A DNA stretch of 64,000 bases from Naegleria gruberi (Eukaryota): the NCBI GenBank assembly GCA_000004985.1, contig GG738884.1. One strand, written 5' to 3'. A model generated the notes under the pieces. The model ran no database searches. It worked only from the letters and a program-made list of their open reading frames with translations, and was not told the origin of the DNA. This document shows positions 5,635 to 43,760 of this stretch, in pieces. Each line of letters opens with the position of its first letter. Position 1 is the stretch's first letter. A program made the position numbers and the translations under genes.

Positions 5635-6343
5635 ATGACCTCACCAGGAAAGTTTATTGGTTCTCCTACAAAGAGAAGAGAAATGGACATTATGAAATTG
5701 TAAGTTTTTCAATTTGAATCAAATTATTCAATTCCGATGATTAGAATGATGAGTAATTATAAAGTTCAAATGAATGATAATCATGCTGAATTTTTCGTTA
5801 AATTCTATGGACCAAAGGATACTAACTATGAAGGTATGTGTTCATTCTCTTTTTAAACTCTTTAATTGAAACTATTTAATGAAACCATTCAATAACATTA
5901 AACTATTCAATGAAACTCTATGAATAGGAGGTGTATGGAAAGTTAGAGTAACCATTCCAGAGAATTATCCATTTAAATCACCAAGTATTGGATTTGCCAA
6001 TACAATTTATCATCCAAATGTTGATGAATCAAGTGGAAGTGTATTTTAGATGTAATTAATCAAACATGGTCACCAATGTTTGACCTTATTAACATTTTTG
6101 ATGTCTTTTTACCTCAATTACTTGCCTATCCAAATGCACAAGAAAGCAGCTGCATTTCTAATGAGAGATGCTGAAGCTTATAAAAAGAAAGTTAGAGATT
6201 ATGTTGAAAAGTATGCAAAAGAAGAAAATATTAAATTTGAATCTCAGGATGATGATTCAGATGAACAAGATGAAGAACAAGATGCTCTATCAAGTGCTTC
6301 TGAAGGTTTAGATGAAAATGATTTGGCTGAATTTGAATTGTAA
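5635..6343 (+). CDS. UBE2H: Ubiquitin-conjugating enzyme E2 H-type (UBE2H-like). Exons 5635..5699, 5745..5833 and 5928..6343. The last exon has two compensating frame disruptions and no catalytic Cys codon; possible pseudogene or sequence error.
   Basis: [22 protein letters not shown]|[30 protein letters not shown]|[38 protein letters not shown] then a frame slip, [32 protein letters not shown], a second slip, [27 protein letters not shown] plus an acidic tail. Near-collinear with human UBE2H. Introns are GTAAGT..AG (45 nt) and GTATGT..AG (94 nt). Confidence 0.7.
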
Positions 6344-6506
6344 TAATTTGTAAAAATTAATTTGTAAAATATTTATAAAGTTTTAACTTCATGAAAGTTT
6401 GTTTTCATGAAAATGTTACAATAGTTCTATTGTGTATATCAAATAGTCAAAGTATATTACTATTGAAAGTATAGTAAAGTATAATATATTGAAAGAAAAT
6501 GTTAAA

Positions 6507-7481
6507 TTACAAAATTTGACATTTTTTCTTTTGTGGACGATTGACATTATTTTGTGGATTGTCTTTCAATTTTTGTTTCATTGCAATTCCAACAGCCAAA
6601 TCAAAAGCATCTGCTAAATTTTCCATAGTCTTTGCACTACATTCAATATATCCTGATGCTTTAATTCTATCTTTCATTTCATTACCTTGTTCCGAAGTGA
6701 CAGGTTCAATTCTCTTATCTTTAAGTTTTTTAATATATTCTTCATCTTTCTTTAAATCTAATTTTGTACCAACAAGAACAATTGGAGTATCTGGATTGTA
6801 ATGTTTCAATTCTTCTGCCCATTTACTTTGACAATTTTCAAGTGAATTTGGATTTTCTAATGAAAAACAAACAAGAAATACATCAGTACTATTATTATTG
6901 TAATTATATATTTGGATTATAGAATAGATTTGGAAGATTAGAATAGTTATATTAGATTGGAATAGTTGATCGTTATTAGATTATATTAGATTGTTAGAAA
7001 TATAATGATGAATATAATAATAGGTCAATGAAATGATGGAATTTTAAAATAACCTACTCTGGATATGACAATGGTCTCAAACGACTATTAATTGTTATTA
7101 TAATAACAATAACAATAATAATATGTTCATCATGATGAAAATGTGATCAAATGATTATTGTGAAACATATATTCAAACCGTTCCATCATTAACGCTGTTA
7201 ATAATTTCTAAATAACTTACTCATAACTATTAAATATTGATATTATTATTATTAAATATATATTAACAAAGTAGTAAATATAATAAAACATACTCTTCTT
7301 GACCAGCAGTATCATATAAAGCAATACTAACAATACCATCACCATATGAAATATTCTTATTATAATTATCAAAAACTGTAGGAACGTAATCTTCAGGGAA
7401 ACAACCTGATGAATAGGCTATTAACAAGGCTGTTTTACCAACTGCACCATCACCTACAACTACACATTTAATAGATTCCAT
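6507..7481 (-). CDS. Rac/Rho-family small GTPase with a CQIL CAAX box. Three exons 7481..7294, 7084..7058 (27-nt micro-exon) and 6888..6507.
   Basis: [20 protein letters not shown]...YDTAGQED | RLRPLSYP | [46 protein letters not shown]...CSAKT...KKKCQIL. G1-G5 motifs are present. The exon 1 donor is GTATGT and the micro-exon is flanked by AG/GTAGGT. Confidence 0.8.
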
Positions 7482-8410
7482 ATTATTATTATTATTCTTA
7501 AAAAGATTCTTCAAGAGATGGGGGAAATGATAGTTAGAAAATTTTTTTAAATATTTTTTTTCTTTTCTGTCAGACATCAATCAGTAGGACGTTTGGTTGC
7601 TTGAAGAAGAAGGAACTCTATCAGTAGAAATTTTAAATGTTATCCAAATTCGAGTCATTTCATGTCGTTTTGTTTGATTGTTGGCACAGTGGAAAGGTGT
7701 TGAAGAGACAATAAATTTCTTTACCTTTGATTCTCAGTGTGTTTCAAACCATTTCGTTATAATAATAATTGAAATTTATTATATCGATTTTCAGTAATTG
7801 AAATCTACTATAATTTTGAGTAACATTGCAATGAACAATCATTGTTTGCTATGGGGATGTGCTTGTTCTAAATTTGAATTAATCTTCACCTTATTGGCCT
7901 CGAAGGAAGTGTAAGGGTCAAGTTGTGAAATTTGTGTAATAAAATTAGTGAACTGATCTATTTGGTTTCAACAAGTGGTAGTGAATTGAAAATTGATAAT
8001 CAGCCAATGGAAGGTTTGAAAGTATTCACATTTCAATTCTCTAATCATCAAATTCTTTTAAAATTGAAATTAGTATTGTTCAATAGAAATGTCAACTTTC
8101 TAAATTCATAGATACTATTTTATTTTCTAGAATTGAACTAATTATATTTTTAATTGCTATTTTACCATAAACTCTTTAATTCTTGAATATTTGAATTGAT
8201 GAATAATTATTTAAATTAAATTCACCTTCCGTGATGTGAACAGTTAGTTCAAAAAATAAAAACTTCAATATTTTATTGTCAAAAAGCCTTCAAAAAAAAT
8301 TGCCTCTCATTTTTCATCATCAACAAGTCTATTGAATTTTAAAAAAGGCTTTGAAAAAATAGAGAAGGAATTAATCAATAATAACATCAACATCAATATA
8401 ACAACAACAA

Positions 8411-9397
8411 ATGATTCGTAAAAACGCACGTCTCCGAAGAGAATTCTTACATAAAAAATCACTTCAAAAAGAAGAACGTGAAAGATTGGATCGTAAAATT
8501 CGTATTCGTGAAGCCTTAGAAAAAGGTGTACCAATTTCGGAAGAAGATATTAGAAAAGAAGCAGAAGAAAATGAATTTGGAGTTAAAGAATATTTAAATA
8601 TATTATCAAATAAGAGTGAAGATAAAAGTGGTGATAAAAGTGGTGATAATGATAATCAAATTTCTAATTTAATTGATAATGAATATGCAAATGCAGGACA
8701 AGAAGATCCTAAAATATTATTAACAACAGCATTAGATCCATCTGATAGATTGAAAAGATTTGTTAAAGAATTACGTTTCTTATTTCCAAATTGTCAACGT
8801 ATGAATCGTGGTAGACAACAAACACAAGAAATTGTTCAAGCAGCAACACAAAATGGTTTTACAGATTTAGTAATGATTCATGAAAATAAGGGTGAACCTG
8901 ATACAATGATTGTAACTCATTTACCTCATGGTCCAACTGCTTATTTTACAATGTTTAATGTTGTAATGAGACATGAAGTTATGAATTTAAGAGAAGAGAA
9001 AATGCCACAACAATTTCCACATTTAATTTTCCATAATTTTAAAACTAAATTAGGTGAAAGAGTTGCAACAATTTTGAAATATTTATTCCCAGTTCCAAAA
9101 CAAGAATCTAATCGTATTGTTACATTTGCTAATGATAATGATTTTATTTCTTTTAGACATCATGTATATATGAGAAATTCACCTGGTACAACACCTCCAA
9201 TACAATTAAAAGAAGTTGGTCCTAGATTTGAATTACAATTATTCCAAATTAGATTGGGTACTGTTGCTGATAAGGATGCTGAATTAGAATGGGTATTACG
9301 ACCATACATGAATACTGCTTCAAAGAGACAAGCTTTAGGTGTTAGTAAGAGTGAATTAAAAGAAGAGGAAGGAAATAAATTAACATCAATAAAGTAA
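8411..9397 (+). CDS. IMP4: U3 snoRNP protein IMP4 (Brix domain), single exon, 328 aa
   Basis: MIRKNARLRREFLHKKSLQKEERERLDRKIRIREALEKGVPI..., a Brix-domain core, and a C-terminus typical of IMP4. Confidence 0.8.
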   Translation: MIRKNARLRREFLHKKSLQKEERERLDRKIRIREALEKGVPISEEDIRKEAEENEFGVKEYLNILSNKSEDKSGDKSGDNDNQISNLIDNEYANAGQEDPKILLTTALDPSDRLKRFVKELRFLFPNCQRMNRGRQQTQEIVQAATQNGFTDLVMIHENKGEPDTMIVTHLPHGPTAYFTMFNVVMRHEVMNLREEKMPQQFPHLIFHNFKTKLGERVATILKYLFPVPKQESNRIVTFANDNDFISFRHHVYMRNSPGTTPPIQLKEVGPRFELQLFQIRLGTVADKDAELEWVLRPYMNTASKRQALGVSKSELKEEEGNKLTSIK

Positions 9398-9494
9398 AAA
9401 CAACTTTTCAATTTTGAATTATTATGTACATCTTACTATTGAAATGAAATGAAAATTTAAGAAAGCTCAATAATTTGTTCAAGTCTTGTGGATT

Positions 9495-10678
9495 TTATTG
9501 ATTATTCAATTGTTGATTATCCAATTCACGTAGTTGTGAACTACTCAATTTAATGGATTCAGTTGCTGCTTCTGAACGAGGAAGTAAAAGTGGAATGCAA
9601 ACAATTTCATACATTGGGAAATTCTTTTCATTCTTTCTAATTTCATTTCCCTTCTTGGCTCCATTCAATGTTTCATCACTGACAACTAAAACTTCCAATT
9701 GTGGATCAGTTGCAATTGGTCCCCAAGGTTCTGGAAGTGGAAATATCTAATTAAAGTTAGTTCATTAATTTGCAAATAACAATTTTAGAATCATTTCAAA
9801 ATAACATACATTAATTTGAGACATATCCATAGATGGATTAATTTTAGCAATTGATTTCAAAACATTATCTCTTCTCAATTCATAAGATTGAATTAATTCT
9901 TTCAATTTCTTATTCTTCAATAATCCATCAATAGAAACTCCAATTTGAATTTCATGTTTCTTTCCATCATTTTGATTATTTTCTTTATAAAGTAATAGAG
10001 CTTGTGTTAATAAAATTTTATGACCTAAATGTAAACGATCAAATGTTCCACCCAAACAAACAACATTAAATTTTCTATAATTTTCTTCCACAGATGAAAT
10101 TACTTGACTATTATTAAATATTAAATCAAATTCATTTAAAGAATGTGAAATATTACATTCAGGTAATATTTCAATTCTATTTAATACGTTATTTTCACAA
10201 ATTATTTCATTTTGTAAATTTCTTTTAAATTTAATCCATTGATTTTCATTATTATTCAATAATAATACTTTTTCATTATTAATAGTATTGTTATTAATAG
10301 TATTATTATATTGTGGCATTACAACATTAAATTCATATTTATAATAATCATTTACATTGGTTAATATTTCAGAATAATATTCTTTATATAAATGAATCTA
10401 AATCATCATCATCATTAAAATATTTTAATTAATATTCAGTTATTGATGATGATGATTAATAAACATACATTTTTAAAAGTTCCGATATTATTTTCTTGTT
10501 GATCATTAATTAAAATTCTAAAATCAATGAATTGATGATGATTATTGTTAGAGTTCAATTTAATATTTTCATTGAAATATTGCAATGATTGTCTAATTAA
10601 TGAGAGATTGCATAGAAAATCTTTAATGGATTGAATATTTTGTGTTTCAACTTGAATATTTAAACAAGTATTTGACAT
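9495..10678 (-). CDS. Phosphopantetheine adenylyltransferase-like nucleotidyltransferase (PPAT/CoaD-type). Proposed exons 10678..10469, 10397..9810 and 9746..9495.
   Basis: Core exon carries CLGGTFDRLHLGHKILL, the cytidylyltransferase (H/T)xGH motif. The 3' exon is joined through a GTATGT..TTAG intron of 63 nt. An upstream in-frame exon (ORF 10436..10678) joins through a GTATGT..TTTAG intron of 71 nt. Confidence 0.6.
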
Positions 10679-10781
10679 TTTTTTTTAAATTAATAATTTA
10701 AGTTTATTTTGTAATCAATTAATACAAATACTATCAATATATACTATCTATTAATTAAAATATATATTTAATTGAATAAAT

Positions 10782-12521
10782 TTAATCAGCTTTAAGAAAA
10801 TTTCTATCCTTAATTTTTTTATAATAACAATAACCAATAATAATTCCTAATATGGTTAATAAAATGATTGAACCAAAAGGTACAACAAGTCCAATAATTA
10901 AATTAGTATAATCAGTATATTCAGGTGGTTGACGATCTTTAAAATCCAAGAAAAGTCTAATATTATTCATTGAATTTAAACCACTCACTTCACCTAAAAT
11001 AAAACCAATTTCTCCATATAAACGTTCACCTGCAAAAAAATCATTTGGTAAACTTGATGGAATAAATGTTGTGACTTGAATTACTTTTTTACCAACATAT
11101 AATTCACCTTCTTTAAGTGGAACATTAAATCTACCTCTCTGATCTCCCAATCTATTGAAATTATAAAATTTTAGAGTAAAATTTTGTGAAATTGGTTGAT
11201 AGAGTGCAAATTGTGGATTTTCATCTTGACTACTCTTAAAGAAATAGGTAAATTTGTTTCTTATGGAACCAACTGTTGTTTTTTGTCCATTTGAAACAAT
11301 TGTAACTGTTGAATTATTTGTTAAATTTGAATTAATAGTTTTCCAATCTGGATCTTCTGCAAAACTACAATTTAATAGAAATGAAAATGGAACTGCTTCT
11401 GAACTTTTATCCATAACATGACATGGAAAATCACCATCTAAACTAATTCCACCATAATGAATTGGTGGTTTTTGACATTGTGGAATTGGTGTTAACATTG
11501 TACTTTTACAATCAAATTTTCTAACATTTTTACAATAATCACCTGTTTTTTCTAATGGACAAATACATGCATAGTGTATTGTAGTATTGGTATAACATTC
11601 CATTGTTGAGTTAACATCATTAATATACTTTTCATATTGATTAAAACTAACAATTGTTCCATTACAAGTATAATAAGGTGTTTCATATTGAACAAATATA
11701 GATCTCTTATCACAATTATTCTTTGGTTTAGTTGAATTGGTTTCTTGAATTCCTCTCTTTAATTCATTCATTTCAAAATTATCATTATCATAATTATTAT
11801 CATTAATATTATTAATATCATTAATATTATCATATTCATTTGAATTAGTATTCATGATGGTATTTTCATTAATAGAATTTTGAATATTATTCAATACATT
11901 ATTTAATTTTGTAATGAAAATATCAGAATTAGAACCTTCCAAAGTATTTTCTTCAACATAAATCTTTCCAAACAAGTATAAATCTAATGATTTTTGTAAA
12001 CTTTCTGGAATATACTTGTTAAATTTAAATTCACCAGGTGAATCAGGATCTTCAACTTGAATTGCTAATTTTTCTAATAAATGATTTAATAAAGGTTTGT
12101 TGAAATTAGAAAATTCTTGTTTAAATAATGAAAATACATTTGTCCATGATTCAAAAGTATGATCCTGATCAAGAATATAATTTGTTGTTGGATCTTGTTT
12201 CGGATACTTTTCAATTAGCCTTTTAATATGATTCATTCGTTGTTCAATTAATTCTGAAGGTACATCCATCAATTTATTAGTAAATGAATTAATAGATGAT
12301 GGTTTTAGTGGTGTTGTTGTTGTAGTAATGGTGGATAGAGTTGATGATGATGGTAATGATAATGAATTTGTTTCATCACCACTGGATAATATAAAAGAGG
12401 AATGAACAAGAATGGTCAATAATAATGTAATGATTGTTAATGATGATGGCGATGACACTCTTCGTCGTAGTAGTAGTGGTATTGAAGAGTGATGGTGTGA
12501 TGAACCTTTGAATAAATACAT
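10782..12521 (-). CDS. Type I transmembrane glycoprotein with an EGF-like Cys-rich module, many N-glycosylation sequons and a single C-terminal TM helix, 579 aa
   Basis: Signal-peptide-like N-terminus, an Asn-rich linker, a Cys-rich segment (ACICPLEKTGDYCKN...), a C-terminal TM (LIIGLVVPFGSIILLTILGIIIGYCYY) and a short basic tail. Confidence 0.55.
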   Translation of the reverse strand: MYLFKGSSHHHSSIPLLLRRRVSSPSSLTIITLLLTILVHSSFILSSGDETNSLSLPSSSTLSTITTTTTPLKPSSINSFTNKLMDVPSELIEQRMNHIKRLIEKYPKQDPTTNYILDQDHTFESWTNVFSLFKQEFSNFNKPLLNHLLEKLAIQVEDPDSPGEFKFNKYIPESLQKSLDLYLFGKIYVEENTLEGSNSDIFITKLNNVLNNIQNSINENTIMNTNSNEYDNINDINNINDNNYDNDNFEMNELKRGIQETNSTKPKNNCDKRSIFVQYETPYYTCNGTIVSFNQYEKYINDVNSTMECYTNTTIHYACICPLEKTGDYCKNVRKFDCKSTMLTPIPQCQKPPIHYGGISLDGDFPCHVMDKSSEAVPFSFLLNCSFAEDPDWKTINSNLTNNSTVTIVSNGQKTTVGSIRNKFTYFFKSSQDENPQFALYQPISQNFTLKFYNFNRLGDQRGRFNVPLKEGELYVGKKVIQVTTFIPSSLPNDFFAGERLYGEIGFILGEVSGLNSMNNIRLFLDFKDRQPPEYTDYTNLIIGLVVPFGSIILLTILGIIIGYCYYKKIKDRNFLKAD

Positions 12522-12845: not shown

Positions 12846-13568
12846 TTATTGCTTAGAAGAAGCATCAAAGCCTAATTGTTTCATTCTAACAGCACAATCG
12901 AACAAATAGTGATAAACTTCAGCATGAGTCTTGGCTTCAACCCAATCCTTACCCCAAATATAAACACCGTGTCTCTTAACTAAAACAGCAAAAGTGTTTG
13001 GATACTTTTCTAAGGCTTCCTTCAATGAACCAGCCAATTCATTTTCAAAAGCAGTGTTTTCAATGATTGGAACAACTAATTCATCATAGAAACCATGTCC
13101 ACGAATTCCTTTAATCATTTCCAAATGAGTAACTTTAAATTCCTTATCATAAATTAAAGTAGCTAACATTGCAGATAAAGCATGAGAGTGAATAACAGCA
13201 CCAGCTCCTCTAACATCATAACACAATTGGAAAAGTGGTTGACAAGCAGAAATCTTGAAATTATAACCGTTATCATTTGGTGAATAAACAGTCTTTAAAT
13301 GTTGGCATGATTGAATATCAACAACTTGAACTTCTGGGTCTTGTTCCATAACAAAGATTTGATCTTCTTTAATTCTTTCCTTGTGAATTCCGGAAGGAGC
13401 AATATAAATTTTACCATCTTTTTTCATTGAAATACCACCACCAGTACCACTGACCCATCCTTGAGTATAATAAAGTTTCATCAATTCAACAATAACTTGT
13501 TGAGGAGTATGAGTATCATTTAATTGAGTATGGTCAAAGACTTTAACAGCAGTGGATTGTTGAGACAT
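12846..13568 (-). CDS. mtnB: Methylthioribulose-1-phosphate dehydratase (MtnB/APIP, class II aldolase-adducin fold)
   Basis: ORF matches MtnB throughout: [20 protein letters not shown]...[11 protein letters not shown]...[10 protein letters not shown]...[12 protein letters not shown]. Confidence 0.85.
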
Positions 13569-15438: not shown

Positions 15439-16563
15439 AATGACTAGGAGAAGAATAACAAGAGGAAGGAATTCAACACCGACCAAACAAGAAATCAATA
15501 CTGATGGTGATGATGACAATATGATACAAACACCAATTGTTACTATTAAAAAGGAAGAATTAACATCTCCAATGGATTTAACTCCAATTCCATCATCATC
15601 ATCATCTGGTAAACAATCAAAATTCTTTAAAACTTCTCCATCCTCTTCAGCTTCATCCTCTCAAGACAATACAAAGAAGGAAGAAGATGAAGATATTGAA
15701 CAAGCAGCTGATAAATTGATTTTATTTAATGAACAATATGAAGCTTTAAAGGAATATAGAAAGAAGAATCTAAATGCACCAGTTGATACGATGGGTTGTT
15801 CAGTTCTAGCTGATTCAAATGCTGATGAAAAAACTCAAAGATTTCAAGTTTTAGTTTCACTCATGTTGAGTTCACAAACTAAGGATCAAATTACAGCAGC
15901 TGCTGTAAGGAAATTACAAGAAAATAATGTTTTATCAGTTGCAGAGATGAACAAATTGTCTGAGAAGGAAATTCAAGATTTAATTTATCCTGTTGGATTT
16001 TACAAAAGAAAGTCAACTTATTTAAAGAAAGTTTGTAAAATATTATTGGAAAAGTATGATAGTGATATTCCTAAAACAGTTAAAGAACTATGTGATTTAC
16101 CAGGTAAGTTTTCTTTGGTTCTCCATTCTCATCTAGTAAACAGGTGTTGGACCTAAAATGGCATATTTATGCATGAGCTCAGCATTGAAACAAACTGTTG
16201 GTATTGGAGTTGATACTCATGTTCATAGAATTAGTAATCGATTGGAATGGGTTAATACTAAAACACCAGAACAAACAAGAATGAAACTGGAAGAATTTGT
16301 ACCACAAGAAGAATGGGATGTTATTAATCACATGTTAGTTGGATTTGGACAAACTGTTTGTAAACCTGTAAGTTTAATTTCTTCATTATATTTCAATATT
16401 TATGAATGTAAAGATTGGTCCAAAATGTAACGAATGTCCACTTAATAAGACATGTGCTTATTTCAAATCAAACAAATCTTCGAAACCATCTCCAAAAAAG
16501 AAGGTTAAAAAACAAGAATACTCATCTGAAGAGGATGAGGAGGAATCAGAAGAAGAACTTTAA
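15439..16563 (+). CDS. NTH1: Endonuclease III homolog (NTH1 base-excision DNA glycosylase). Exons 15439..16103, 16144..16367 and 16414..16563.
   Basis: HhH-GPD motif LPGVGPKMA spans the first intron (GTAAGT..AG, 40 nt). The Fe-S cluster motif CKP|[14 protein letters not shown] spans the second intron (GTAAGT..AG, 46 nt). It has a basic, N-terminal targeting-like extension and an acidic C-terminal tail. Confidence 0.85.
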
Positions 16564-18293: not shown

Positions 18294-18340
18294 TTTTTTG
18301 ATTTTATTTTTAAAATTGGCGCCAAACAAGTAGAAAAAAA

Positions 18341-30092: not shown

Positions 30093-32284
30093 ATGGAAAA
30101 ATTAAGGGAGATTTTGAATAATTATCCAGACTCTACAGAGGTATCACTTGAGAAGTGTAATTTAACTACCTTGGATGATGTATTGGATTATTTGGGAAAA
30201 TTAGGAAATCTTAAAGTTTTAAGGCTTGGTAATAACTTCCTCTCAAAGCTTCCTTCAGATATGAGCAACATGAAAAAGCTCGAATATTTAGATGTTAGTA
30301 ACAATCCTTTTGGGGATTTGGAAGATATAATGTCAGGCTTGGTTTCTCTCCCTTCCCTAAAACATCTCTACATTTCATTGAACGAAGATGATGAAGATAA
30401 TTTGATTATTAGTATGGCTAATTTGCAATCGTTCAATGGTACACCATTAACAGATATTCCTGATAATGATCCAGCTTTATACAATGAAGAAGATGCTCCT
30501 GGTGAAACTTTTACTTCAAATCCACCTCAAGACTCCTATGCTAACACTGAACAAAACGAAAAAGTTGAATTCAATGAAACAGACCTTGAAAGTAAGTTGT
30601 TTTATCATTTTCCTTAAGGTTGATATTATTAATTAAGGTTCAAGAAAGGTTTACGAAGCATCCTGCTTATTCTTAGGACAAAAGCCTCAATTTTCAAACT
30701 TTGCTGCAGATACTATTGCACATTTAAAGAATAATTTAACAGAGGAAACTGATCACGTTAAGGCAACAATTACCATTTCAAATGCTAATAAGACATTGTA
30801 CGATAGAAGCTTTGAGGATATTATTGGTGTTATTGCAAAATCCGATAAGAAATTATCAAGTGTTTTGGCTATTGTCAAGAGCTCTTACTCTGGCCTCCTA
30901 GATGATTGTTTCACTTTGATGGATAATACTGTTCTTGAATATAATAAGAGAGTTAGATCTTTGCAGAAAGATTTAGATGCAGCAGATGTTGAAATAGGAC
31001 AACTTCTTGAAGCTGCTGAAGCACTTCAACAATCAGCTTCCGACAGTGAAAGTACTAAGAGAAAAGTATTGCTCAGCTGGGAGAAGGAAAGAGAAAGTTT
31101 GTGTGAAGAAATAGGATTCTTAAAGACTGAATTAGAAAGTAAGTTTCATAATTTTCATTCAATATTAACAAATTTTAGAATACAAGAACAGACTTACACA
31201 ATTCCAACTTAATAGACAAAAGATTTCCACACAAATCAATACTTCACCATCCAAACTACTTAAAACACCACAATCACCTTCTACAGGTAATTCACAACTG
31301 AGCAGTAGTACTTTTAAGCTGTCTCAAATTACTGTTAATGTGAATACTAAATCCCTAACTTTGCGTCAATTAAAGGATTTGATCGAAGAAATTTACGCAT
31401 CTAAGCAAAAGTTTGATGAAAAGTGTGCAGAGAGCAGACTTCCCAGAGAAACAATGGAACAACATTTATATACATACCTCAATCAAAAGTATGGTCTTAA
31501 GAATATAATTTTGGATTATGCTTCATCAATTGTCCAAGGTATTAAGAGGTACTCTACTGAAGATAACGATGTTGCTGTATTTGGAAAAATTTTAAGAAAT
31601 GAAATCGATGAAGAATTTAGATTTGTTCAAAAACAATTAAAGGATACTGTAGCTGAATTATTAAAGGTTTTCCTTAGAGGAAAATATACTAAGAAGATGG
31701 ATTCTGAAATTCAAGCAATGCTTCAACAAAGAATGTCTGGAGACATCCTTGAGGAAGAATGGGTTGATATTGTTAAATACATGTACAATAAGGAAGATTC
31801 TGTGAATGTAATTATGAAGGTAACTGAAGCTATTCAAGCCATCCAAAACAAGCTCAACAGAGGAAACAGTAGACAAATTGGGTCAACATCTCCAACTAAA
31901 AGTATTCCAAACAATCAAAATAAGGTTCCATTCAAGATTTTCCTCAAAGTCTTGTTGACATATCAATTGAAAGGTCACGAGCAATTCTTGTACAAGTTTG
32001 TCAAGTTGTTCAGAAAAGTTGATGGAGACAAGAATGGTATCTTGAGTGAAATTGAATTCAAACATTTACTTCACCTTATTAATCCAAATAGATCGGAAAG
32101 TGATTATGCTCAATGGTTGAACTATGTAGATCCTTACAATAATCAACATATAACATTTACTGAATGTGTTACTTTCCTTTCTTCAGAACTCTTAAAGTTA
32201 ATGGGTGAAAAGTCTCAAAATGATTCTGTTGATGAGGAAAATGCGGATGAGGAATTTGAATATGAAAATAATGCTGAAATGTAA
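30093..32284 (+). CDS. Leucine-rich-repeat / coiled-coil / EF-hand protein. Exons 30093..30591, 30638..31138 and 31179..32284. Possibly flagellar or centrosomal.
   Basis: N-terminal LRRs with an LRRcap-like end (LQSFNGTPL), a central coiled coil, and a C-terminal EF-hand loop DGDKNGILSEIEF. Two GTAAGT..AG introns of 46 and 40 nt are both phase 1. Confidence 0.65.
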
Positions 32285-32289
32285 AATAA

Positions 32290-33239: not shown

Positions 33240-33887
33240 TTAATCGGAGGTTTTTAATGCAAGACTTGGAATAAATACATTTTCAACAAGTGGAGATTCA
33301 TCATCATCGTCCTCATCCTCATGATCTTTCAAGTATTTGGTAGAGTGTAAATTTTCATCATGAATATAATTTCCTAAACATGCATTTTGTAAAAATTCTA
33401 ATAAATTATCACAGACTGCAGTTGGAGGTCTTACATCACCTAAAGTTTCATCAACTTCAATTAAATAAATTGATTCCATCTTTGTTAAATTCCATGCATA
33501 ATAGAGTGTTTCTTGAATTCCATCCTTGGCAAAAATTACAAAATTCTTAAATGTAGATTCATAATGTTGTTCCAGAATTGTTTCTGCTGAATTTTCTCTT
33601 TCTTCATCGTTAATCATTCTTAAGAAAATATTTTGAATTCTCTTTGTTTGGAATTTAATATCGAATTGATAATATGTTGATGATGGATAAATACCATACA
33701 AGTGTACTCTTCCTAGTTTTCCACTTCCATATTTTGATAGGAATTGTACATAATCTTTGATGATTTGATTATCTGATGGTATATTTACACTTTTGAATTC
33801 ATTGATCATCTCCTCTTCAGATGGTTTTGGGATCGGAGAAAGAGAAGGAATGTTTCTCAATCTAATCTCCACGTTGAGTGTTTCCAT
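33240..33887 (-). CDS. Hypothetical acidic protein, 215 aa
   Basis: Intron-free ORF between PinX1 and the CEP164-like gene. No family recognised. Confidence 0.4.
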   Translation of the reverse strand: METLNVEIRLRNIPSLSPIPKPSEEEMINEFKSVNIPSDNQIIKDYVQFLSKYGSGKLGRVHLYGIYPSSTYYQFDIKFQTKRIQNIFLRMINDEERENSAETILEQHYESTFKNFVIFAKDGIQETLYYAWNLTKMESIYLIEVDETLGDVRPPTAVCDNLLEFLQNACLGNYIHDENLHSTKYLKDHEDEDDDDESPLVENVFIPSLALKTSD

Positions 33888-33893
33888 TTTTTT

Positions 33894-36194
33894 CTAAGTG
33901 AGTTCATGTTTTAGAGACAACAACCAGTTTCCATGCTTTAAAAACATGTCCCTTTTGTGATCTCTTTCAGATATCCACTTGTCTAACTGATTCTGGAATG
34001 CATTAATTTTTCCTTGTAGGATCTTTCTTCTCTTCTCAGTTTGTTTGAAATAATTATGCCATTTTGTTGAAATCATTTGGTAAGATTGAGATGTTTCATC
34101 TAGATTAGTTTGATCAAGTTCTGGGAATATTTTCTTGTAGGCCTTGTAGTTTTCATCAACAGGTGGTTTGTTTTGGAGCTCAATCTTTTTATGGAGAAGG
34201 GCAAGGTCTTCCTCAATTCTGTTCAATATCTTGGCAAGGTGAGACTTGTTTGTGTCAGAATCACTGCTGCTACTGGTAGATAGACTATTAGGGGAATCAG
34301 GATCTGCAGAAATATATGATTCAAAATGGCTCTGATCAATAATACTATCTTCCAGTACTTTGATTTTCTTCTTTCTTAAAGCAATCAGGTTTTGAATTTC
34401 ATTCACTCTCTTGACATCATTATTCAAGCTGTGAGCTTGCTTTTCCAAATGTTGTTTAACACTCTTCAATATCTTATTCATGTTATGCTGGGATCCATCC
34501 TTAATGATGCTTGTATTCAACATATCAGTCTTCCATTCCTCTCTGGCTTGTTCCAACATTTCTTGTCTTGCTCTAATCGTTTCTTTTTCTTGAGAGCAGA
34601 ATTCTTTTGCCTTCTTTAATTTAAGCTTTTCTTCACTAATCTTCTTTTCAGTTTTTTCCTTATACAGAAGGAATTCAGTGTTTTGTTTAGCTAATTGTCT
34701 TGGAGGGGTATTTTCCTTGTCCAAATCAGATATAGAAAGAGGACTTGGGCTTTCATACTTGTTAGATTGCTTAGGTTTCTTAGTTTTAACCAAAATTGGT
34801 TTAAGAGGTGTTGCTAGAACAGGACTTTTTGGGCCCTGTTGGACTGGTATTGGAGACAAAGTTATTGTCTCTATTTCTACATGCTTATTTGCAGGTAATT
34901 GAATGTCTGCTTGGAGACATTCATCTCTAGTTGTTTTTTCTGTTGTCTGTTGTGACTGGTCAATAGTTACAACTTTCTTAGGGGTAATTTGTCTAGGTTC
35001 ACTTGTTTGAGCAAGCATATCTTTGAATGTTTTGGTTATTGTGTTCACACCATCAGATGTGGTTTTGACTCCATCTGTTTGACAGAGACTTGATATTGTT
35101 TGTATTTCAGTTTGAGTTGTTTTGGAGAGAGAAGTCTTCTTTCTCTCAACTTCCACAATCTTTTCAACTATCTTAGGTTTTTCAACAATCTTTTCGACTA
35201 CTTTTTCAACAATCTTCTCGACTGGTTTCTCTACAATTTTCTCTATAATTTTCTCAACAGGTTTTTCGACAACCTTCTCGACTATCTTTTCTACAATTTT
35301 CTCGACTGGTTTCTCTACAATTTTCTCTACAATCTTCTCAACAAGGACCTTAGTATCAATTTTATCAGTTTGACACTCGATAGCCTTAAACGTCTTTGCT
35401 TCAGTTTGTGCTTGATTTTTCTTCAATCTAGCATTTTCCTCAAACATTTCATCTGCTTCTTGTCTTGCTAATGCTATTTGTTTCCTATTTTCAATAAATG
35501 TATCTTGGAGAGTTTGCTTGTGTTTCTTTTCCATGATATCTTTTTCGGTTTGAAGCTGAGTTATTTTGTTCCTGTACTCAACTTCCATCTTATTCTTATT
35601 CTCTCTAAGATCATTTTCTAGTTTTTCATTCTCATTATTCAAGTGTATTATCTTTTTCTGAAGTTCAATCCTTTCCCTGTTTGATAATTCAAGTTGTTGA
35701 TCTAGAGACCTTATTTTGTCTTGTAATTTGATAAGCTCTTCATTGTTTTGCGGAGATGAAGAACTTGATTCTCTAAGCTTCTTTACAGATGATGAAGAAG
35801 ACAAAGTAGTCATATTAGTAAGAGAAGGTATTTCATCTGATGATCGTAAAGAATTGAGCGGATCAAGTTTTGTTGTTGTAATTTTCTTCTTTTTCTTCTT
35901 TTTTTCCTTTTTCAATTTTTCCCTTTCCTTTGCCACTTTTTCCTTATAATAGGCATCAAGTGGATGATCCCATATTGATTCTCCTGAATTAAAATTAAAG
36001 TAATAAAGTTGACCATCGGACTGACAAGGTCTCCATCCATCAGGTAAGGGAGCTTTTATTCCCTCCAAAGCGATTGGTATTAACTCCTTTTCCAGCACAG
36101 GATCAATACCAAGAAATTCTGCATATTTTAAAACATCCTCTTCAGTAGGCTCTTCTTGCTCGATGAAGATATTGTCATCATCAATAGAACTCAT
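33894..36194 (-). CDS. CEP164-like centriolar distal-appendage protein (N-terminal WW domain plus long coiled coils), 766 aa
   Basis: N-terminus [74 protein letters not shown] matches the CEP164 N-terminal region and WW domain. It also has a central run of about ten VEKIVEKP octapeptide repeats and a Ser-rich C-terminus. Confidence 0.6.
35125..35375. repeat. In-frame 24-nt tandem minisatellite, about 10 imperfect copies, encoding the (V/I)EKIVEKP repeats of the CEP164-like protein
   Basis: Direct repetition of ttctc(g/a)ac(a/t)(a/g)(t/g)tt...tctacaat units is visible. Spurious ORFs 35100..35471 and 35122..35373 arise from it. Confidence 0.7.
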
Positions 36195-36314
36195 TTTTTT
36201 TCACAATATTTTAAAGAGAAACGGTTTTTGTAAGAAAATTGGCGGGAAACTTGTGAGCGCCACTTTAAAATGTAACGATAAAGTTGTTTGAGAATTTAAT
36301 TATTAATAAATAGG

Positions 36315-38000: not shown

Positions 38001-38019
38001 GTGGTTTGAGAATTATTTA

Positions 38020-38994
38020 TCAATATTTTGATCTCTTAATATTAGGATAAAAAACACAATTCCACTCAGGATTCCAAGGAAGTGCCATGATGATTGAGTC
38101 AACAAATAATTTGTCTGAAATTGTTTCACCCAATCCCAAGTACTCTCTTACTTTTTCACTAGCTTTTGTTAAAATTAAATCACCTCCATCTGGTAGCTCA
38201 ACAAAAACTGTACCTCTCTTTTTCGCTTCTTTTGTTACTGTCAAAGTCCAACTAGTTACACATCCCTCTTCATCATATGCATCATGGTCAATAGTAATGT
38301 CACCAATCTTGATTTGTGCCTCGTAAGAGTATCTATAATCCATTCTTGTCGATTTAAAAGAAATAATGGTGCACTTTCTGAATATATTATCTTCCAATTG
38401 TTTGGCAATAGCTTTTCCATGGGTTCTCTCCACATCATCCAAATATGAATTCCAAGCTGCCATTTTCTCCAGTGTTTTGGTTTTTGATTTCAATTTTGCT
38501 TTGACCAATTCCACAGTATTCGAAAGTTCTGAAACTGTTTGTATAAGCTTTTCTTCATATGAATTCAAAGTCTTTTTATCTTGACCTTTTCTGACTGTTC
38601 TTTCCTCTTCTTCATCATCAGATCCTTCATCTTCTTCATCTTCCTCATCAGCATCATCTTCCTCATCCTCCTTTTCATCCGATTTCTTTTTTGCCAAATT
38701 ACTTGTTCGAACAAAAGTGGAAAGGTCAACTCTCTGAACTAATCTTTCCAAATCTCTCTTTAATCGACTAGAAAGAAATAAAGAGTGATTCTGATAGAGT
38801 GAATTGTACAATTCTCTACAGGTAAGAATAAAATTGGCTCCATCAAGAGTATCATCGAGATAATTTAAAATTTCGCTATGAATTTCCGAAGGTAATTGAC
38901 AAATATTATCATCATTTCTGCCATTGGTCTTGATCAACTTCTTGGAGGGGGATGGTTCAGAGTTGTTGGAATCATCAGACAGTTTTCTTTTCAT
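38020..38994 (-). CDS. F-box-like protein with an acidic linker, 324 aa
   Basis: N-terminal CQLPSEIHSEILNYLDDTLDGANFILTCRELYNSL fits the F-box consensus (LP.EI...IL..L). Acidic D/E stretch. Convergent with the upstream orphan gene. Confidence 0.55.
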   Translation of the reverse strand: MKRKLSDDSNNSEPSPSKKLIKTNGRNDDNICQLPSEIHSEILNYLDDTLDGANFILTCRELYNSLYQNHSLFLSSRLKRDLERLVQRVDLSTFVRTSNLAKKKSDEKEDEEDDADEEDEEDEGSDDEEEERTVRKGQDKKTLNSYEEKLIQTVSELSNTVELVKAKLKSKTKTLEKMAAWNSYLDDVERTHGKAIAKQLEDNIFRKCTIISFKSTRMDYRYSYEAQIKIGDITIDHDAYDEEGCVTSWTLTVTKEAKKRGTVFVELPDGGDLILTKASEKVREYLGLGETISDKLFVDSIIMALPWNPEWNCVFYPNIKRSKY

Positions 38995-39721
38995 TTTTTT
39001 TTCTAATAAATGATGGATTTTGTGATTTGCAGGAACATATCCCGAACTTTGCGAATTTGATGTAAACCAATATTTTAATTATATTCAGTAAAATAAAGAA
39101 ATCAACAAGATACTGGAAGGCAATTAAAAGCATGCTATGTTGCCTGTATGCTTCTAAAATGATTAAGCTATTAAAGATTGGGATTCGGATTTTTATTCAA
39201 TTTTTTAAAATTCTTTTCTCCCTCAATTACGTATCATTGAAGAGAATGAATATTCAATGTTACTGTTACAAAGTTACACATCGAGTTCTGTGATAATAAC
39301 TGTTCAATCCCGTAATAAATTAAGAAAGGAGATACTGGACTTTAATCAATACAGTGAATAACTCTTGTTCTCACGAACACAATCTTCTTCAATCCGCCTT
39401 ATTTTGGAACAGTTCCATCGTGACTGTTGGCCTTAATTATAAATCGCATTGTGTTTTATTGGAAAATATGATTCTCTTAGTTGTAGAATAGACAATAGAG
39501 GTTCGTATCTTTGAACTGGTTGCTGTAAAAATTTCCTTAATAGCTAAATACCGTTTCCAAAACAATTCTCAAAATTTCGCTTTCTGGTGTCTGATCGCGA
39601 TCTAATACTTGAACAATGAAGCGGGACTTCTTTGACCTTTTCAAAAAAAACGAACAAACACCAACAATAACAAGATTGGAAGTCTTGAGATTTATCGCCT
39701 TACTTGATAACCCTTGCGTGC

Positions 39722-41666
39722 ATGTACCAATCAACTTCATCATCATCTTCATCATTAAAAGATCGTACTCTCACTCATAAAGTGCTCATTGAAAGATTGC
39801 TAAAAGGTATGTTATTTTGTTGTATTAAGGGTTGCTTATGTGATGAACATTGTTATAATGCTGCTACTGCTACTAATAATTATACAACAATTAATAACAT
39901 CAGAATATTGCTCGCAAACTTATACCTTCAACGATCAACACATTGCCCCTTCATCACTTGTTGACTCTTCTTTTGCAATGATGCCAAACAATAACAACAT
40001 GTTGTTTGGAGGAAATAAGAATGGCAATGGTTTCTGTAACAATTCCCTCAATATTAACAATCAACAGCAAACAAACAATGGTACTTCTTCATTTCCATCA
40101 TCAAGTGGTAGTTCTGGACTACATCTTTCTCTCAATTATAACGAACTAACTAACATGCAGTATCCTCAAACCTATAATGGAAATAACATGTTCAGTTCAT
40201 CACCACATGCAACAAACTCCATCAATATTCACAAGACATGCTACGATAATAACTTCATCAGATCAAATAACCAGCATCAAGAGAATATGATCTCTCCTCT
40301 TGATTTCTCAAACATGTTCAATGTACAAAATAATAATTCATCAAACATGAATAATTGCAACATGAGGAACGGAAATCAAATTTCAAACAATTTTCACATG
40401 AATCAAAACAGTCAACAACATGTAAATTTCAACGTGGTTCCTCAAAACTCAATGACTGGTCAATACGAACCACTAGTCCAATCATTTTCAAATCCATTCC
40501 AACTAGGTTCCGCAAACCAAAGAGTATCTGAGCCTTCCTTAGCCCTTGAAGATACTTGCATTTCCCAGTTTTGTAGCACAGAGGCCCTTAACAAGAGGAA
40601 GCAAACGTTATCTGATTTCCAATTACAGTCAAACAACTCAATCTCAAATACCATAGAGTGTTCTTCAAGCATATCTCCACAACCATTCATTGAAAATAGT
40701 CAAAATGCAATGAATTTAGTTGAGAACTCTTTCAATACACATCTTGGAACGACAAACAAAATGCAATCATCATTTCCTCACAATAATAACTGTTACCTTA
40801 ATAACAACAGCAACGACATGCATTTTGGGGGAGAACATTGTTTTGATCCTTCAGATGATGCATCATCTAACGAGCATGTATCAAGTCCAAAGAGTGGAGG
40901 AAAGGAAAGAGTTGTTGCTTCAAGTGTAGGAAAGAAAGTGAATGGTAGATATACAAAGCTTAGAAAACAGTTAAGAACATTTGGAGGTGATTTCACAGAT
41001 AACTACTTTGTTTTGGATATTTCTACAGCAGGAGAGAAGAGACCAATTAAGGGAGGAAAGAAGAGAAAGTCATCACCAACCGAAAATGAATCAGAAGAAG
41101 AAATATTACATAACAATAGAAATCACAGAAGTTATACCATCCATTCTTCAGATTATAACAATAATATCAAAATCATACCAGACATGCAAAACACATCTGA
41201 TGAATGTGTAATTGACATGGACTCAAGAAGACGTTCTTCAATAGGACCAATTTCTCAATCATCAACCAATCCAGTCATTATGATAGATTCAGTCAACAAT
41301 AACTCATTCAATCCTCCTCCATCCCTAATAATTTCAAACGATTCCATGTCGAGACCATACTCCACTCCAAACAATACCATTTCCCCAAGAAGCTCCAACT
41401 CTAGAGATATAACACCACAAGAAGTTGAACAAACCGACAATAGATCTGTACAGATACTCCTCTCTCTATTAATGAATTCGGTTAATCAACAACAAGCAAC
41501 TAAGGAAATATCAATCAATAATGAATCAGTTCCACCACAATCCAATCCTCAATTCAATTTCAATGTAAATACAAGAAGTCAATCCCTTACCCCTCAAAAC
41601 TTTGCCAACAATGAGGATTTTTCATTTTTGAACATGTTGATGAGACAGAACAACAATAAACAATAA
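39722..41666 (+). CDS. Asn/Ser/Gln-rich low-complexity (prion-like) nuclear protein. Exons 39722..39806 and 39904..41666.
   Basis: MYQSTSSSSSSLKDRTLTHKVLIERLLK|EYCSQTYTFNDQ... joined across a phase-1 intron GTATGT..ATCAG of 97 nt. The ORF-track N-terminus MMNIVIMLLLLLIII is read-through of that intron. Basic patches KKVNGRYTKLRK...KGGKKRKSS suggest an NLS. Confidence 0.55.
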
Positions 41667-41725
41667 CAAATCGCAAATATCTACTTTTCACATCATTCAA
41701 ATGTCATCACAACAATCAAAAAAAA

Positions 41726-41939
41726 ATGAACGACACAGAGAAGATTGTCTTGATTTTGTTCTGTCTGTTTTTACCTCCTGTAGCAGTTGCTGTTAGAAAG
41801 GGATTGCACATTCACTTGTATTTGAACATCTTCCTGACCTTGCTTGGATTGATTCCTGGAATTATTCACGCCTTCATTGTTGGTAAGTTGTGTTGGAAAT
41901 TAAATTTTATATAATTTCATAGCTTTTGGAATTTTGTAA
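41726..41939 (+). CDS. Pmp3/UPF0057 plasma-membrane proteolipid, about 57 aa. Exons 41726..41882 and 41923..41939.
   Basis: ILFCLFLPPVAVAVRKG...LNIFLTLLGLIPGIIHAFIV matches Pmp3/RCI2/YqaE. A 40-nt GTAAGT..CATAG intron precedes the last five codons. Confidence 0.7.
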
Positions 41940-41957
41940 ATTGAATAAATAGGATAT

Positions 41958-43071
41958 TTATCTATCATTCCACCAAATTACACCAAAACAATTCTCAAAT
42001 GCTTCATAAGTCATCCAGAAACAACCATCATCTGTGTTTTCATGTTTGAGTGATTTTTTCACATCTGGATACTTGTCCCATTCTGAGCTATTATCGGACC
42101 ATGGTCCATTATATTCAGTTCTTCCCCATGTATTTCTCAAATTTACTAATTTTAAATCATGTTCTGGGAATTTTCTATATCCAAGAAGTGAATAACCATG
42201 ATAATTAACAAGACCTTTCGAGTTGACCAAATCAGATCCTTCTTCACCTGGCATTGTTGCACAAACTGGAACACTTGTAGCACTGTCTAATAACTTTTCA
42301 ATTAAGGGCCAAAAAGTACCATTCTTCATCTTTTCTTTTGCCTCTGAATCTCTTCCTGTGAACCATTCTAATTGTTTGGCTCTACCACCAAATAGTAAAG
42401 AAAGAATATTCGAAGGGTAGATCAAGTGAGCATTCATCAGTGGATTTACCTTTTCATAATCTCCAACCTAATGTTAATTCATTGATTTTACAAGATCCAA
42501 AAGAGAATACTTACTAGTTTGGCTATTGCCTTTTCAATTAGAGATATCCACAATTCGCCAACATCATCTGAATGGGCAAACTTTAAACGACCATTTTCAG
42601 CAGGAAAATAATCATCTATGAGGAGAGTCATCTTCTCATTGTTTGGCTCTAAATTGAATGTGAGTGCATAGAGACCTAGTTTTGATCAATCGACTCACAA
42701 TGAATGAATACTCTCCTTAATAGATTTGGTCTCAATGCTGCTCCACTTATACTTGAAATTAAAAAGCAATCACCCAAACTTCCTTGAATTGCATCCTTAA
42801 CAGAAATATTCTTAAATACTGCCGGTTTCTTGAATAGGTCTTGTGCTCTAACACAATCACTTCTTGGAGGGAAATCCTCATCAACAAATTTCAAGTTTCT
42901 ACTCTTTAGTTCACCAACTAGATCATTTACAATATCTGGTGTTTTGAAACCAATTTTACGAGGACCAATTCTCTGATTGGAATGGCTCATTAGAATATTT
43001 CTACAACTCGACTGTTTATCATCCTCTATACATGCTGGATAATCCACATAGGTTGCCTCAATAATGTACAT
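41958..43071 (-). CDS. Calpain-type cysteine protease (catalytic core). Exons about 43071..42516 and 42467..41958, with a one-base frame break near 42680.
   Basis: FVDEDFPP...AVFKNISVKDAIQGSLGDCFLISSISGAALRPNLLRRVFIHCESIDQN, a frame slip, GLYALTFNLEPNNEKMTLLIDDYFP...ELWISLIEKAIAKL|VGDYEKVNPLMNAHLIYPSN...GLVNYHGYSLLG...LVNLRNTWGRTEYNGPWSDNSSEW. The Cys, His and Asn catalytic residues are present. The 47-nt intron is GTAAGT..TTAG. Confidence 0.75.
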
Positions 43072-43405
43072 GGTTGGTTTTTCTGTTACTTTCAACACAT
43101 ACTCAACTTGATCACTTTTCTCATCCTTCAGTAAGAAATAATGTCCACTATATGCAAAAGTTCCCCAAAACGTTGAAATAGGAGCGCTGCATAACCATGA
43201 GAAAAGTGATTTCCTTCTGTATCCACTCTAATGACATCAAACTTTCTTGTTGTATCATTTTTTATCCAAATATCAGTTTGATTATTCGAATCGAAGGTTG
43301 ACTTGAGAGATTTCCAATCAATATCACTTGCGTTAATCAAATTACAAGTATGAATATTCTTTGAAGTATCTTCCTCAATTGCATTCTCAAATTCTTCCTT
43401 CCATT

Positions 43406-43760
43406 CTAATTGATCTTTCTCTTCCTCAATTTCATTACATTCTCGTCATCATCTGACTCTTCTCCATAAAGAACTCCATCCTTTTCCTTATCATACACAA
43501 ACATTCCAGGCTGAACCTCAAAATAATCAATTGTCTCATCAGTTGGAACAAATATTGCTAGAATTTTCTGATCCCGAACAAGTCTCATTACAAATGGATG
43601 AGTGGCTGCTGTTTGTTGACAACACTTCTCTCCAGGATTTAGTGAAGGGTTGTTCCTTTCCATCATAATCCACCCATATCATTTGCACAGGTTCACCCAC
43701 TGTATTATGGAAAACAATTCGACAAACCTTATCCCATCGCTTAGAACGAAGAAGTTGCAT
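43406..43760 (-). CDS. VHL beta-domain-like small protein, frameshifted in this sequence; possible pseudogene
   Basis: MQLLRSKRWDKVCRIVFHNTVGEPVQMIWVDYDGKEQPF, a frame slip, PSLNPGEKCCQQTAATHPFVMRLVRDQKILAIFVPTDE... aligns to human VHL residues 65-120 ([33 protein letters not shown]...HLWLFRD...ELFVP). I found no alpha-domain or BC-box. Confidence 0.45.

Follow-up and report, generated by a model that had tools for sequence, protein, structure and literature searches.

Frameshifting lesions in a UBE2H-type E2 gene and a VHL-calpain fusion gene of Naegleria gruberi NEG-M: evidence for probable recent inactivation

If a reading frame is broken in an otherwise well-preserved gene, then the break may be a mutation carried by the organism, an error of the assembly, or a feature that is removed or bypassed during expression, and the stretch of Naegleria gruberi DNA analysed here (64,000 nt of contig GG738884.1; hereafter the window) raises the question of which of these applies. 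The window is part of the Sanger-sequenced N. gruberi NEG-M reference scaffold, and six of its intact ORFs exactly match proteins of NEG-M located on one 363,092-bp scaffold. Sanger sequencing of the NEG-M genome is recorded in Table 1 of PMC9928731, and the assembly to which the window belongs is also the one on which the reference annotation was built. The original prediction, made from the sequence alone, was that at least three genes are disrupted. The window sequence does contain frame disruptions, but the number of genes affected is two and not three, because what were counted as a VHL-like ORF and a calpain core are parts of one gene.

Distribution of frame disruptions and the Rho gene

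The coordinates of the two disrupted genes, their lesions and the neighbouring Rho gene are listed in Table 1. All other genes in the window are intact when canonical introns of at least 40 nt are allowed, and the lesions are thus limited to two genes, the other coding sequence, about 50 kb, being free of them. The genuine introns of the window are at least 40 nt long, with GTAAGT or GTATGT donors, and the remaining same-strand ORF junctions are either canonical introns of 40-125 nt or gene boundaries. Other candidate frameshifts (at 12849, 16140, 16378, 26875, 27316, 30637, 31169, 33897, 49233, 45783 and 46371) proved to be canonical introns, 5' leaders or separate genes. An origin from a dictyostelid, or from a ciliate with introns of 15-16 nt or an altered genetic code, was also considered and rejected, as homology points to Naegleria, with the standard code and introns of at least 40 nt. 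The clustering of the lesions goes far beyond chance, the probability that six random lesions fall in at most two of 39 genes being ~6e-5. This result bears on the possibility, which we regard as unlikely, that consensus errors of the Sanger shotgun assembly (e.g. from reads of low coverage or quality, mis-joined heterozygous haplotypes or mutated clones) gave rise to the lesions and that both genes are intact in the organism. Errors of this kind should be scattered over the ~53 kb of coding sequence, yet they would have to be confined to two genes, and the window contains no N and no gap.

The Rho/Rac GTPase gene next to the E2 gene had been described as anomalous, with a short switch II region lacking the Tyr-Asp pair. 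This description does not hold, as these residues come from a 6-nt micro-exon, TTATGA (7226..7221), and the product spliced with it is identical at 200 of 200 positions to the annotated NEG-M protein (P0148), with a complete switch region and a C-terminal CAAX box (CQIL). The pattern TAG-N6-GTAAGT occurs once in the window. The micro-exon is kept as TTACGA in N. lovaniensis, whereas Willaertia lacks it and has no introns there. Like the micro-exons known from other conserved genes, it has canonical splice sites on both sides and encodes invariant residues, and in comparison with them it is nothing unusual, being already present in the reference annotation. Apparent frameshifts and "missing" Tyr-Asp residues of this kind therefore need checks for micro-exons and against other strains before they are interpreted.

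Table 1. Positions of the genes, lesions and annotation artefacts in the window
Feature	Position	Strand	Basis or remark
UBE2H/Ubc8-type E2 gene, disrupted	5635..6343	+	sequence reading, homologues, intron search
E2 exons	5635-5699, 5745-5833, 5928-6343	+	
E2 true introns	5700-5744 (45 nt), 5834-5927 (94 nt)	+	
Invented 20-nt "intron", model XP_002674333 (P0002)	6020..6039	+	P0002 mapped onto window
E2 lesion 1, 1-nt deletion	6041..6049	+	DNA alignment with environmental contig L001
Invented 40-nt "intron" (GTCTTT...CACAAG), XP_002674333	6103..6142	+	cuts out conserved residues
E2 lesion 2, clean 14-nt deletion (TCCATTAAATTCAG)	6136..6150, after 6143	+	
Rho/Rac GTPase gene, intact	6507..7481	-	
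Rho exons	7481-7294, 7226-7221, 7084-7058, 6888-6507	-	
Rho introns	67, 136, 169 nt	-	
6-nt micro-exon TTATGA, encodes (D)Y(D) in switch II	7221..7226	-	
VHL beta domain(s) + calpain (Peptidase_C2) core, one gene, four frameshifting lesions	41958..43760	-	
VHL-calpain single true intron	42514-42468 (47 nt)	-	
Invented 23-nt "intron", model XP_002674434 (P0269)	42676..42698	-	
One C lost from GATCCAAAA, calpain core	42683..42685, adjoining 42684	-	
Tandem GC duplication (GCGC vs GC), second beta domain	43184..43187	-	
Extra GAT (in frame) + one G lost from GAGGAA (frameshift), acidic linker	43441..43453	-	
5-nt deletion (TGTCT), first VHL beta domain	between 43642 and 43641	-	

Lesions in the E2 gene and the VHL-calpain gene

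The assignment of the first gene to the UBE2H/yeast Ubc8 subfamily is indicated by its best named matches ("ubiquitin-conjugating enzyme E2 H" and plant E2-23 kDa proteins), and N. lovaniensis and Willaertia share the gene order Brix-Rho-E2. It shares with this subfamily the UBC core, the HPN...C...DPLN layout and a recognisable acidic C-terminal tail. However, unlike the members of this subfamily, the window copy has a broken catalytic Cys codon and its DPLNS residues are deleted. Two slips had been predicted in this gene and two frame changes are indeed present in its last exon, although the second of these is a clean 14-nt deletion rather than a one-base slip. At the first site, the window reads GTA T-T TTA, in contrast to GTT TGT TTA (Val-Cys-Leu) in an environmental strain represented by four contigs (L001-L004) from one ENA metagenome, which are ~98-99% identical to the window. 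The Cys codon has thus lost its G (after 6044); a synonymous A/T difference adjoins it at 6043, and an in-frame TAG stop follows directly downstream. Six relatives have sequence that runs across this site (P0005, P0003 and P0006-P0009), and all six keep the Cys, whereas the annotated NEG-M model (P0002) skips it. That a lesion should have hit precisely the catalytic Cys codon is a striking coincidence. The second lesion removes D-P-L-N-S and shifts the frame, while DP(L/M)N is kept in 6/6 relatives reading through this site as well as in the orthologues L005 and L006. The features of an active E2, viz. HPN, a Cys at the conserved spacing and DPLN, are all present in the environmental allele and in the E2 relatives, but they do not occur in one open frame in the window copy, from which an active enzyme is impossible due to the broken Cys codon and the deleted DPLNS.

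The second gene aligns end to end with a NEG-M paralogue (P0121) and with the N. lovaniensis protein P0123, and the same VHL-beta plus Peptidase_C2 architecture is seen in intact relatives from N. gruberi and N. lovaniensis. It is one member of a Naegleria family of VHL-beta-domain/calpain fusion proteins, no mention of which was found in a literature search. Once its sequence is repaired, the Peptidase_C2 Pfam match scores 175 bits (cutoff 23.8), with the catalytic Cys, His and Asn boxes present as GDCFL, YHGYS and RNTWG, and PF01847, the family of the VHL beta domain, scores 33.2 bits (cutoff 21) over aa 5-62; in P0123 the PF01847 match lies in the second copy. Along 43760..41958 (minus strand), the frame changes at places where a canonical intron is impossible. 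The two slips that had been noticed in the VHL-like and calpain parts are there, but the gene carries four lesions, two of which had been missed. At 43641..43642 the ancestral reading is Q-P-F-T-V-L-N-P-G (QPFTVLNSG in P0121), across the acidic-linker site (43441..43453) the relative P0122 reads DDEECNEIEEEKDQLEW, and at 43184..43187 the ancestral reading is H-G-Y-A-A-P-I-S-T-F-W. In the calpain core a frame slip does exist, but the missing base is not at aacta[t/c]ggt as had been proposed; it is instead a C located 9 nt upstream, in GAT[C]CAAAA, and the true reading is S-I-D-P-K-L-G-L-Y-A-L-T-F in place of the expected Q-N-(Y)-G-L-Y. Due to this 1-nt deletion, which separates the Cys box from the rest, the calpain core has no continuous frame. 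Extra slips at 42400-42450 (alternative frame GKSTDECSLDL) were considered and rejected, as the paralogues match the main frame. The idea that the lesions fall on conserved motifs is correct for the E2 gene (the catalytic Cys codon and DPLN), but as a general pattern it owes something to ascertainment, since the two lesions that were missed lie in sequence that could not be recognised in the first reading.

Comparison with the environmental strain

The six lesions could be polarised by means of the environmental strain, orthologues and paralogues. At all six sites the environmental contigs show the intact state, which for the E2 gene is also found in N. fowleri, N. lovaniensis, Willaertia and Acrasis, and for the VHL-calpain gene in P0121 and P0123. 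The lesion sizes (-1 and -14 in the E2 gene; -5, +3/-1, +2 and -1 in the VHL-calpain gene) match the natural spectrum of non-coding indels between the two strains, which range from 1 to 12 nt. The count of coding against non-coding indels that had been proposed as a check was carried out on the stretches compared between the strains. Seven frameshifting indels are present in 2,325 nt of the broken genes, whereas intact CDS, over 2,006 nt, has none (Fisher p=0.017), the strains differing there by substitutions only; the density in the two broken genes equals that of non-coding DNA (~3-4 per kb). In its copy of the VHL-calpain gene, the environmental strain carries a separate -2 frameshift within the VHL part, which fits with this gene being a dispensable paralogue. 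No mention of the metagenome accessions of the environmental contigs was found in the literature search, a scan of JGI metagenomes for either E2 allele gave no matches, and among the other public assemblies searched none contained the lesion-specific ORFs. Exact look-ups of window proteins among gene positions likewise gave no match, and a 2025 preprint that used NEG-M contained nothing pertinent.

Synonymous and non-synonymous substitutions relative to the environmental strain number 3:0 in the E2 gene and 7:4 in the VHL-calpain gene, and this predominance of synonymous substitutions, in numbers that are small, is consistent with constraint having been lost only recently. The suggestion that these are very recent real events fits this pattern and the indel density. 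However, an E2 gene with two lesions and yet no non-synonymous change is compatible with consensus error as well as with very recent inactivation, and further points in favour of such error are that half of the six lesions consist in the loss of a single base and that heterozygosity, which PMC9928731 (citing Fritz-Laylin 2010) reports for N. gruberi, can complicate consensus calling. Against it, the clean -14, -5 and +2 events are atypical for Sanger data, and the intact genes compared with the environmental strain have no frameshifting indel. The specific proposal of long-read or homopolymer errors is excluded by the sequencing technology, and in addition only three of the lesions are of 1 nt, none of them in a run of more than two bases. 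From the lesion spectrum and the clustering, the lesions would appear to be present in NEG-M DNA and not just in its assembly.

Inactivation of the two genes and its masking by gene models

The explanation that we consider probable is that two genes on the assembled haplotype, one of them the sole UBE2H/Ubc8-type E2 of NEG-M and the other the VHL-calpain gene, were recently inactivated by ordinary small spontaneous mutations and are now pseudogenes or null alleles, a result that is biologically ordinary. The mutations would be slippage-type deletions and duplications of 1, 2, 5 and 14 nt. A first lesion would have destroyed each frame, after which later indels would be neutral and could accumulate, and this would be the reason why several lesions are found in each broken gene and none in their neighbours, the Rho gene with its conserved micro-exon being undamaged. 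Both copies show full-length homology and synteny, together with lesions that disrupt the frame relative to the ancestral state. A further possibility, which is very unlikely, is that the inserts were toxic in E. coli and that only mutated clones survived. Plasmid-based shotgun libraries are known to suffer from selection against toxic inserts as an artefact, and a protease and an E2 are imaginable as toxic proteins. However, the E2 is not expressible in E. coli because two introns lie upstream of its lesions, one lesion per clone would suffice whereas two and four are present, and intact paralogues, P0121 for instance, went through cloning and assembly undamaged.

Loss-of-function alleles are known to be fixed in long-cultured laboratory strains of yeast. 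The window copies resemble such pseudogenes and null alleles in being full-length and syntenic, with their introns in place, and in having few small frameshifting indels and little other decay, with the intact allele kept by a close wild relative. They differ in that their lesions may or may not be homozygous in NEG-M and may have arisen either in culture or in the wild ancestor. NEG-M may retain intact alleles of these genes, and the lesions would then be heterozygous null alleles rather than lost genes. It is conceivable, if rather doubtful, that the axenic laboratory strain NEG-M has lost its only UBE2H/Ubc8-type E2 on all chromosome copies; alternatively, the lesions may belong to a single decaying haplotype of a clonally propagated heterozygous or polyploid lineage. 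In yeast and human, the GID/CTLH ubiquitin ligase, which responds to nutrient shifts, has UBE2H/Ubc8 as its dedicated E2. If all copies are lost, NEG-M, the standard Naegleria model strain, would be a natural knockout of the GID/CTLH pathway, possibly fixed over decades of culture in rich medium, and a laboratory strain homozygous for the lesions, and thus without a UBE2H-type E2, would bear on experiments on ubiquitin signalling and nutrient response.

The automated gene models mask the damage by means of the invented GT-AG "introns" of 20, 23 and 40 nt and an internal start codon. That XP_002674333 and XP_002674434 restore the frame in this manner could be taken to indicate that the lesions are real but harmless, being spliced out as very short introns or bypassed by programmed frameshifting, and at three sites a TAG in the old frame comes no more than about 30 nt after the lesion. 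It is, however, scarcely credible that this is the case. The length and donors of the genuine introns speak against it, and in every relative the skipped segments belong to conserved coding sequence (6020..6039, for example, is coding in all of them). Further, XP_002674333 places the Cys directly after HPN, whereas in all E2 relatives the Cys lies nine residues after the Asn of this motif (e.g. HPN-VDEASGSV-C), and XP_002674434 lacks both VHL domains because it starts at an internal Met at 43071. Slippage of the ribosome by +/-1 cannot repair the -14, -5 and +2 changes, and the orthologues are in one frame. Stop-associated -1 frameshifting was likewise rejected, as the base-level comparison places the true lesions upstream of the TAG codons and their sizes and directions vary.

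Both models are thus artefacts built over frameshifts, for which a correction of the annotation will be useful. They are similar to the frameshift-dodging mini-introns of other automated models in restoring the frame by means of GT-AG segments that lie exactly over the lesions, but they differ from the usual artefact in that the cause here appears to be genuine mutation and not merely poor sequence. Studies of E2 or calpain evolution using N. gruberi as the discoban representative inherit these wrong sequences, and the artefactual proteins are carried in EukProt and in UniProt, where XP_002674333 corresponds to D2VN46 and XP_002674434 to D2VN65.

Lesions in the E2 and VHL-calpain genes

The two slips originally predicted in the UBE2H-type E2 gene are both present in its last exon, downstream of two canonical introns (45 and 94 nt), and the second of them is a 14-nt deletion. 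Contig L001 of a metagenome strain (ENA sample ERZ929261), which excluding indels is ~99% identical to the window, carries an intact E2 copy. Relative to this contig, the window at lesion 1 reads GTGTAT-TTTAG versus GTGTTTGTTTAG, leaving the catalytic Cys codon without its G next to a synonymous A/T difference, whereas at lesion 2 the absence of 14 nt (TCCATTAAATTCAG) removes D-P-L-N-S. The Cys and DP(L/M)N are found in 6/6 E2 relatives reading through the lesion sites (viz. P0005, P0003 and P0006-P0009) and also in the syntenic N. lovaniensis and Willaertia orthologues. On L001, gene call P0005 seemingly takes TGA as Trp, and this locus was reported not to translate to the query. In a search with the conceptual E2 protein, N. 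gruberi was the top named match, with N. fowleri, Willaertia and Acrasis next, and no second N. gruberi UBE2H-type protein was seen among the best 120 matches. The annotated protein XP_002674333 (P0002) equals the window translation but for two gaps, which map to GT...AG "introns" of 20 nt (6020-6039) and 40 nt (6103-6142) lying exactly over the lesions. In this model the Cys immediately follows HPN, whereas in real E2s it takes nine residues to get from the HPN Asn to the Cys, and due to this difference P0002 is an annotation artefact.

The VHL-like ORF and the calpain core, earlier counted as separate disrupted genes, are a single gene. Its conceptual product aligns over the full length with P0121 (a 576-aa NEG-M paralogue on a different scaffold; 68% identity), P0123 (569 aa, N. 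lovaniensis; 36%) and P0122 (a 365-aa ORF of the metagenome strain; 96%), and Pfam detects the VHL beta domain and Peptidase_C2 in both the repaired window sequence and the two full-length relatives. One slip had been predicted in each part and both exist; however, comparison with metagenome contig L002 shows four lesions in total, of which lesions 2 and 3 had been overlooked. The calpain slip was also misplaced, as the lost C lies 9 nt upstream and the true reading is not QN(Y)GLY but SIDPKLGLYALTF, which is conserved in paralogues. In the annotated model XP_002674434 (P0269), an internal Met (43071) serves as the start, and lesion 4 is bypassed by a 23-nt "intron" (42676-42698) that deletes the conserved ESIDPKLG. 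L002 itself has privately lost 2 nt (GA) within a GAGA run and, therefore, the VHL part of the metagenome strain is broken too; in two lineages, this paralogue seems to be undergoing independent decay. Such proteins (569-586 aa) form a small Naegleria family, in which two tandem VHL-beta-like domains are fused to a calpain catalytic core; a full-text literature search for Naegleria, calpain and VHL jointly returned no paper.

Coordinates of the genes, lesions and other features in the window
Feature	Position	Strand	Description
UBE2H-type E2 gene	5635..6343	+	last exon shifts frame twice
E2 lesion 2	after 6143	+	14-nt deletion
Rho micro-exon	7226..7221	-	TTATGA, 6 nt; canonical splice sites both ends
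VHL-calpain gene	43760..41958	-	
VHL-calpain lesion 1	between 43642 and 43641	-	5-nt deletion (TGTCT)
VHL-calpain lesion 2	43453..43441	-	GAT gained, one G lost
VHL-calpain lesion 3	43187..43184	-	GC duplication
VHL-calpain lesion 4	next to 42684	-	one C lost
Metagenome-strain deletion	~43631		2 nt, private to L002
Protein-kinase C-terminal fragment	143-577		within 17.7% G+C stretch
SET-domain ORF	658-1533		within 17.7% G+C stretch

The intact Rho gene

The anomaly predicted in switch II of Rho resulted from incorrect splicing in the original reading, in which a 6-nt micro-exon was overlooked. TTATGA, flanked by ...tttaatag and gtaagt..., lies between an exon ending ...GGT CAA GAA GA and one opening T CGT TTG AGA; its inclusion supplies the switch II Tyr-Asp and yields the full 200-aa protein, which has a CAAX box at its C-terminus and matches the annotated NEG-M Rho (P0148) at 200/200 residues. 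The gene is intact. The pattern TAG-N6-GTAAGT occurs once in the window (both strands scanned). In N. lovaniensis the micro-exon is at the matching place, as TTACGA (a synonymous change), whereas in Willaertia this stretch is uninterrupted. The order Brix/IMP4 - Rho - E2 is common to N. gruberi, N. lovaniensis and Willaertia magna, and the tail-to-tail arrangement of Rho and E2, with ~160 nt between them (6343-6507), is conserved in the syntenic loci of the latter two (L005, L006).

Distribution and origin of the lesions

In a census of the window, all adjacent same-strand coding-like ORFs were listed and canonical intron joining was sought, with the leftovers judged by Pfam continuity and by eye. 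Outside the two broken genes, all junctions were canonical 40-125-nt introns, 5' leaders or gene boundaries. The probability of six random lesions falling in two or fewer genes is ~6e-5 (~53 kb of coding sequence, 39 genes), and the lesion density of the broken genes, if extrapolated, predicts ~130 lesions in the remaining coding sequence. The metagenome-strain contigs L001-L004 span ~7 kb of the window. Intact coding sequence (2,006 nt) shows 14 substitutions and one in-frame 3-nt indel but 0 frameshifting indels; the two broken genes (2,325 nt) show 16 substitutions and 7 frameshifting indels (6 in NEG-M, 1 in the metagenome strain; Fisher p=0.017 versus intact coding sequence); and non-coding DNA (~1.8 kb) shows 26 substitutions and 8-9 indels of 1-12 nt, including a 1-nt indel at 41726 tallied here because its A9/A8 run sits upstream of an ATG. 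Thus, the broken genes gain indels like non-coding DNA, with the same size spectrum. However, synonymous to non-synonymous substitutions number 3:0 in E2 and 7:4 in VHL-calpain, and this mostly synonymous pattern, though based on small numbers, is consistent with a loss of constraint that is only recent. These contigs derive from ENA ERZ929261 (run ERR1078381, PRJEB11402), labelled metagenome, representing an N. gruberi-like genome ~1% divergent from NEG-M; a literature search did not trace the origin of the sample.

Based on these results, the lesions are most likely genuine loss-of-function mutations that arose recently on the NEG-M haplotype that was sequenced, the "very recent" events of the original prediction. 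Such mutations would account for the multi-base, slippage-type lesions and for the independent lesion in the same VHL-calpain paralogue of another strain; their limitation to two genes would follow because later indels in an already dead gene would be neutral. Assembly error is a less likely possibility, and it does not fit the lesion sizes, their clustering or the technology: the NEG-M assembly is Sanger-sequenced (PMC9928731 Table 1) and, hence, is not the long-read or homopolymer-limited assembly that had been suggested. Neither tiny introns nor ribosomal frameshifting would credibly rescue the lesions. Naegleria is described as a heterozygous diploid (PMC9928731), and NEG-M may retain intact alleles. 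The observation of frame disruption is confirmed in part, with its details corrected. What it amounts to is two pseudogenes or null alleles of an ordinary kind, together with a correction to the annotation, and its general interest is low.

Gene models and window composition

The artefactual XP_002674333 (D2VN46) and XP_002674434 (D2VN65) proteins are present in UniProt and EukProt, and further NEG-M models with introns <35 nt may conceal additional lesions. Convincing introns in the window are never shorter than 40 nt, the length of those at 16104-16143 and 31139-31178, and this is a helpful lower limit for assessing gene models of the N. gruberi genome. The window (G+C ~30%) has densely packed long ORFs split by short GTAAGT/GTATGT...TAG introns, and six intact ORFs are identical to annotated NEG-M proteins (D2VN45 to D2VN71) of one 363,092-bp scaffold, which places the window within the NEG-M reference. 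In positions 1-2000, G+C falls to 17.7% with coding ORFs still present. At 33887-33896 (- strand), a SUKH/SMI1-like gene opens at an ATG that shares its frame with the WW-domain gene upstream and lies only 6 nt past the stop of that gene; these ORFs are read as two genes, but they may also reflect read-through, or a nonsense mutation within one longer gene.
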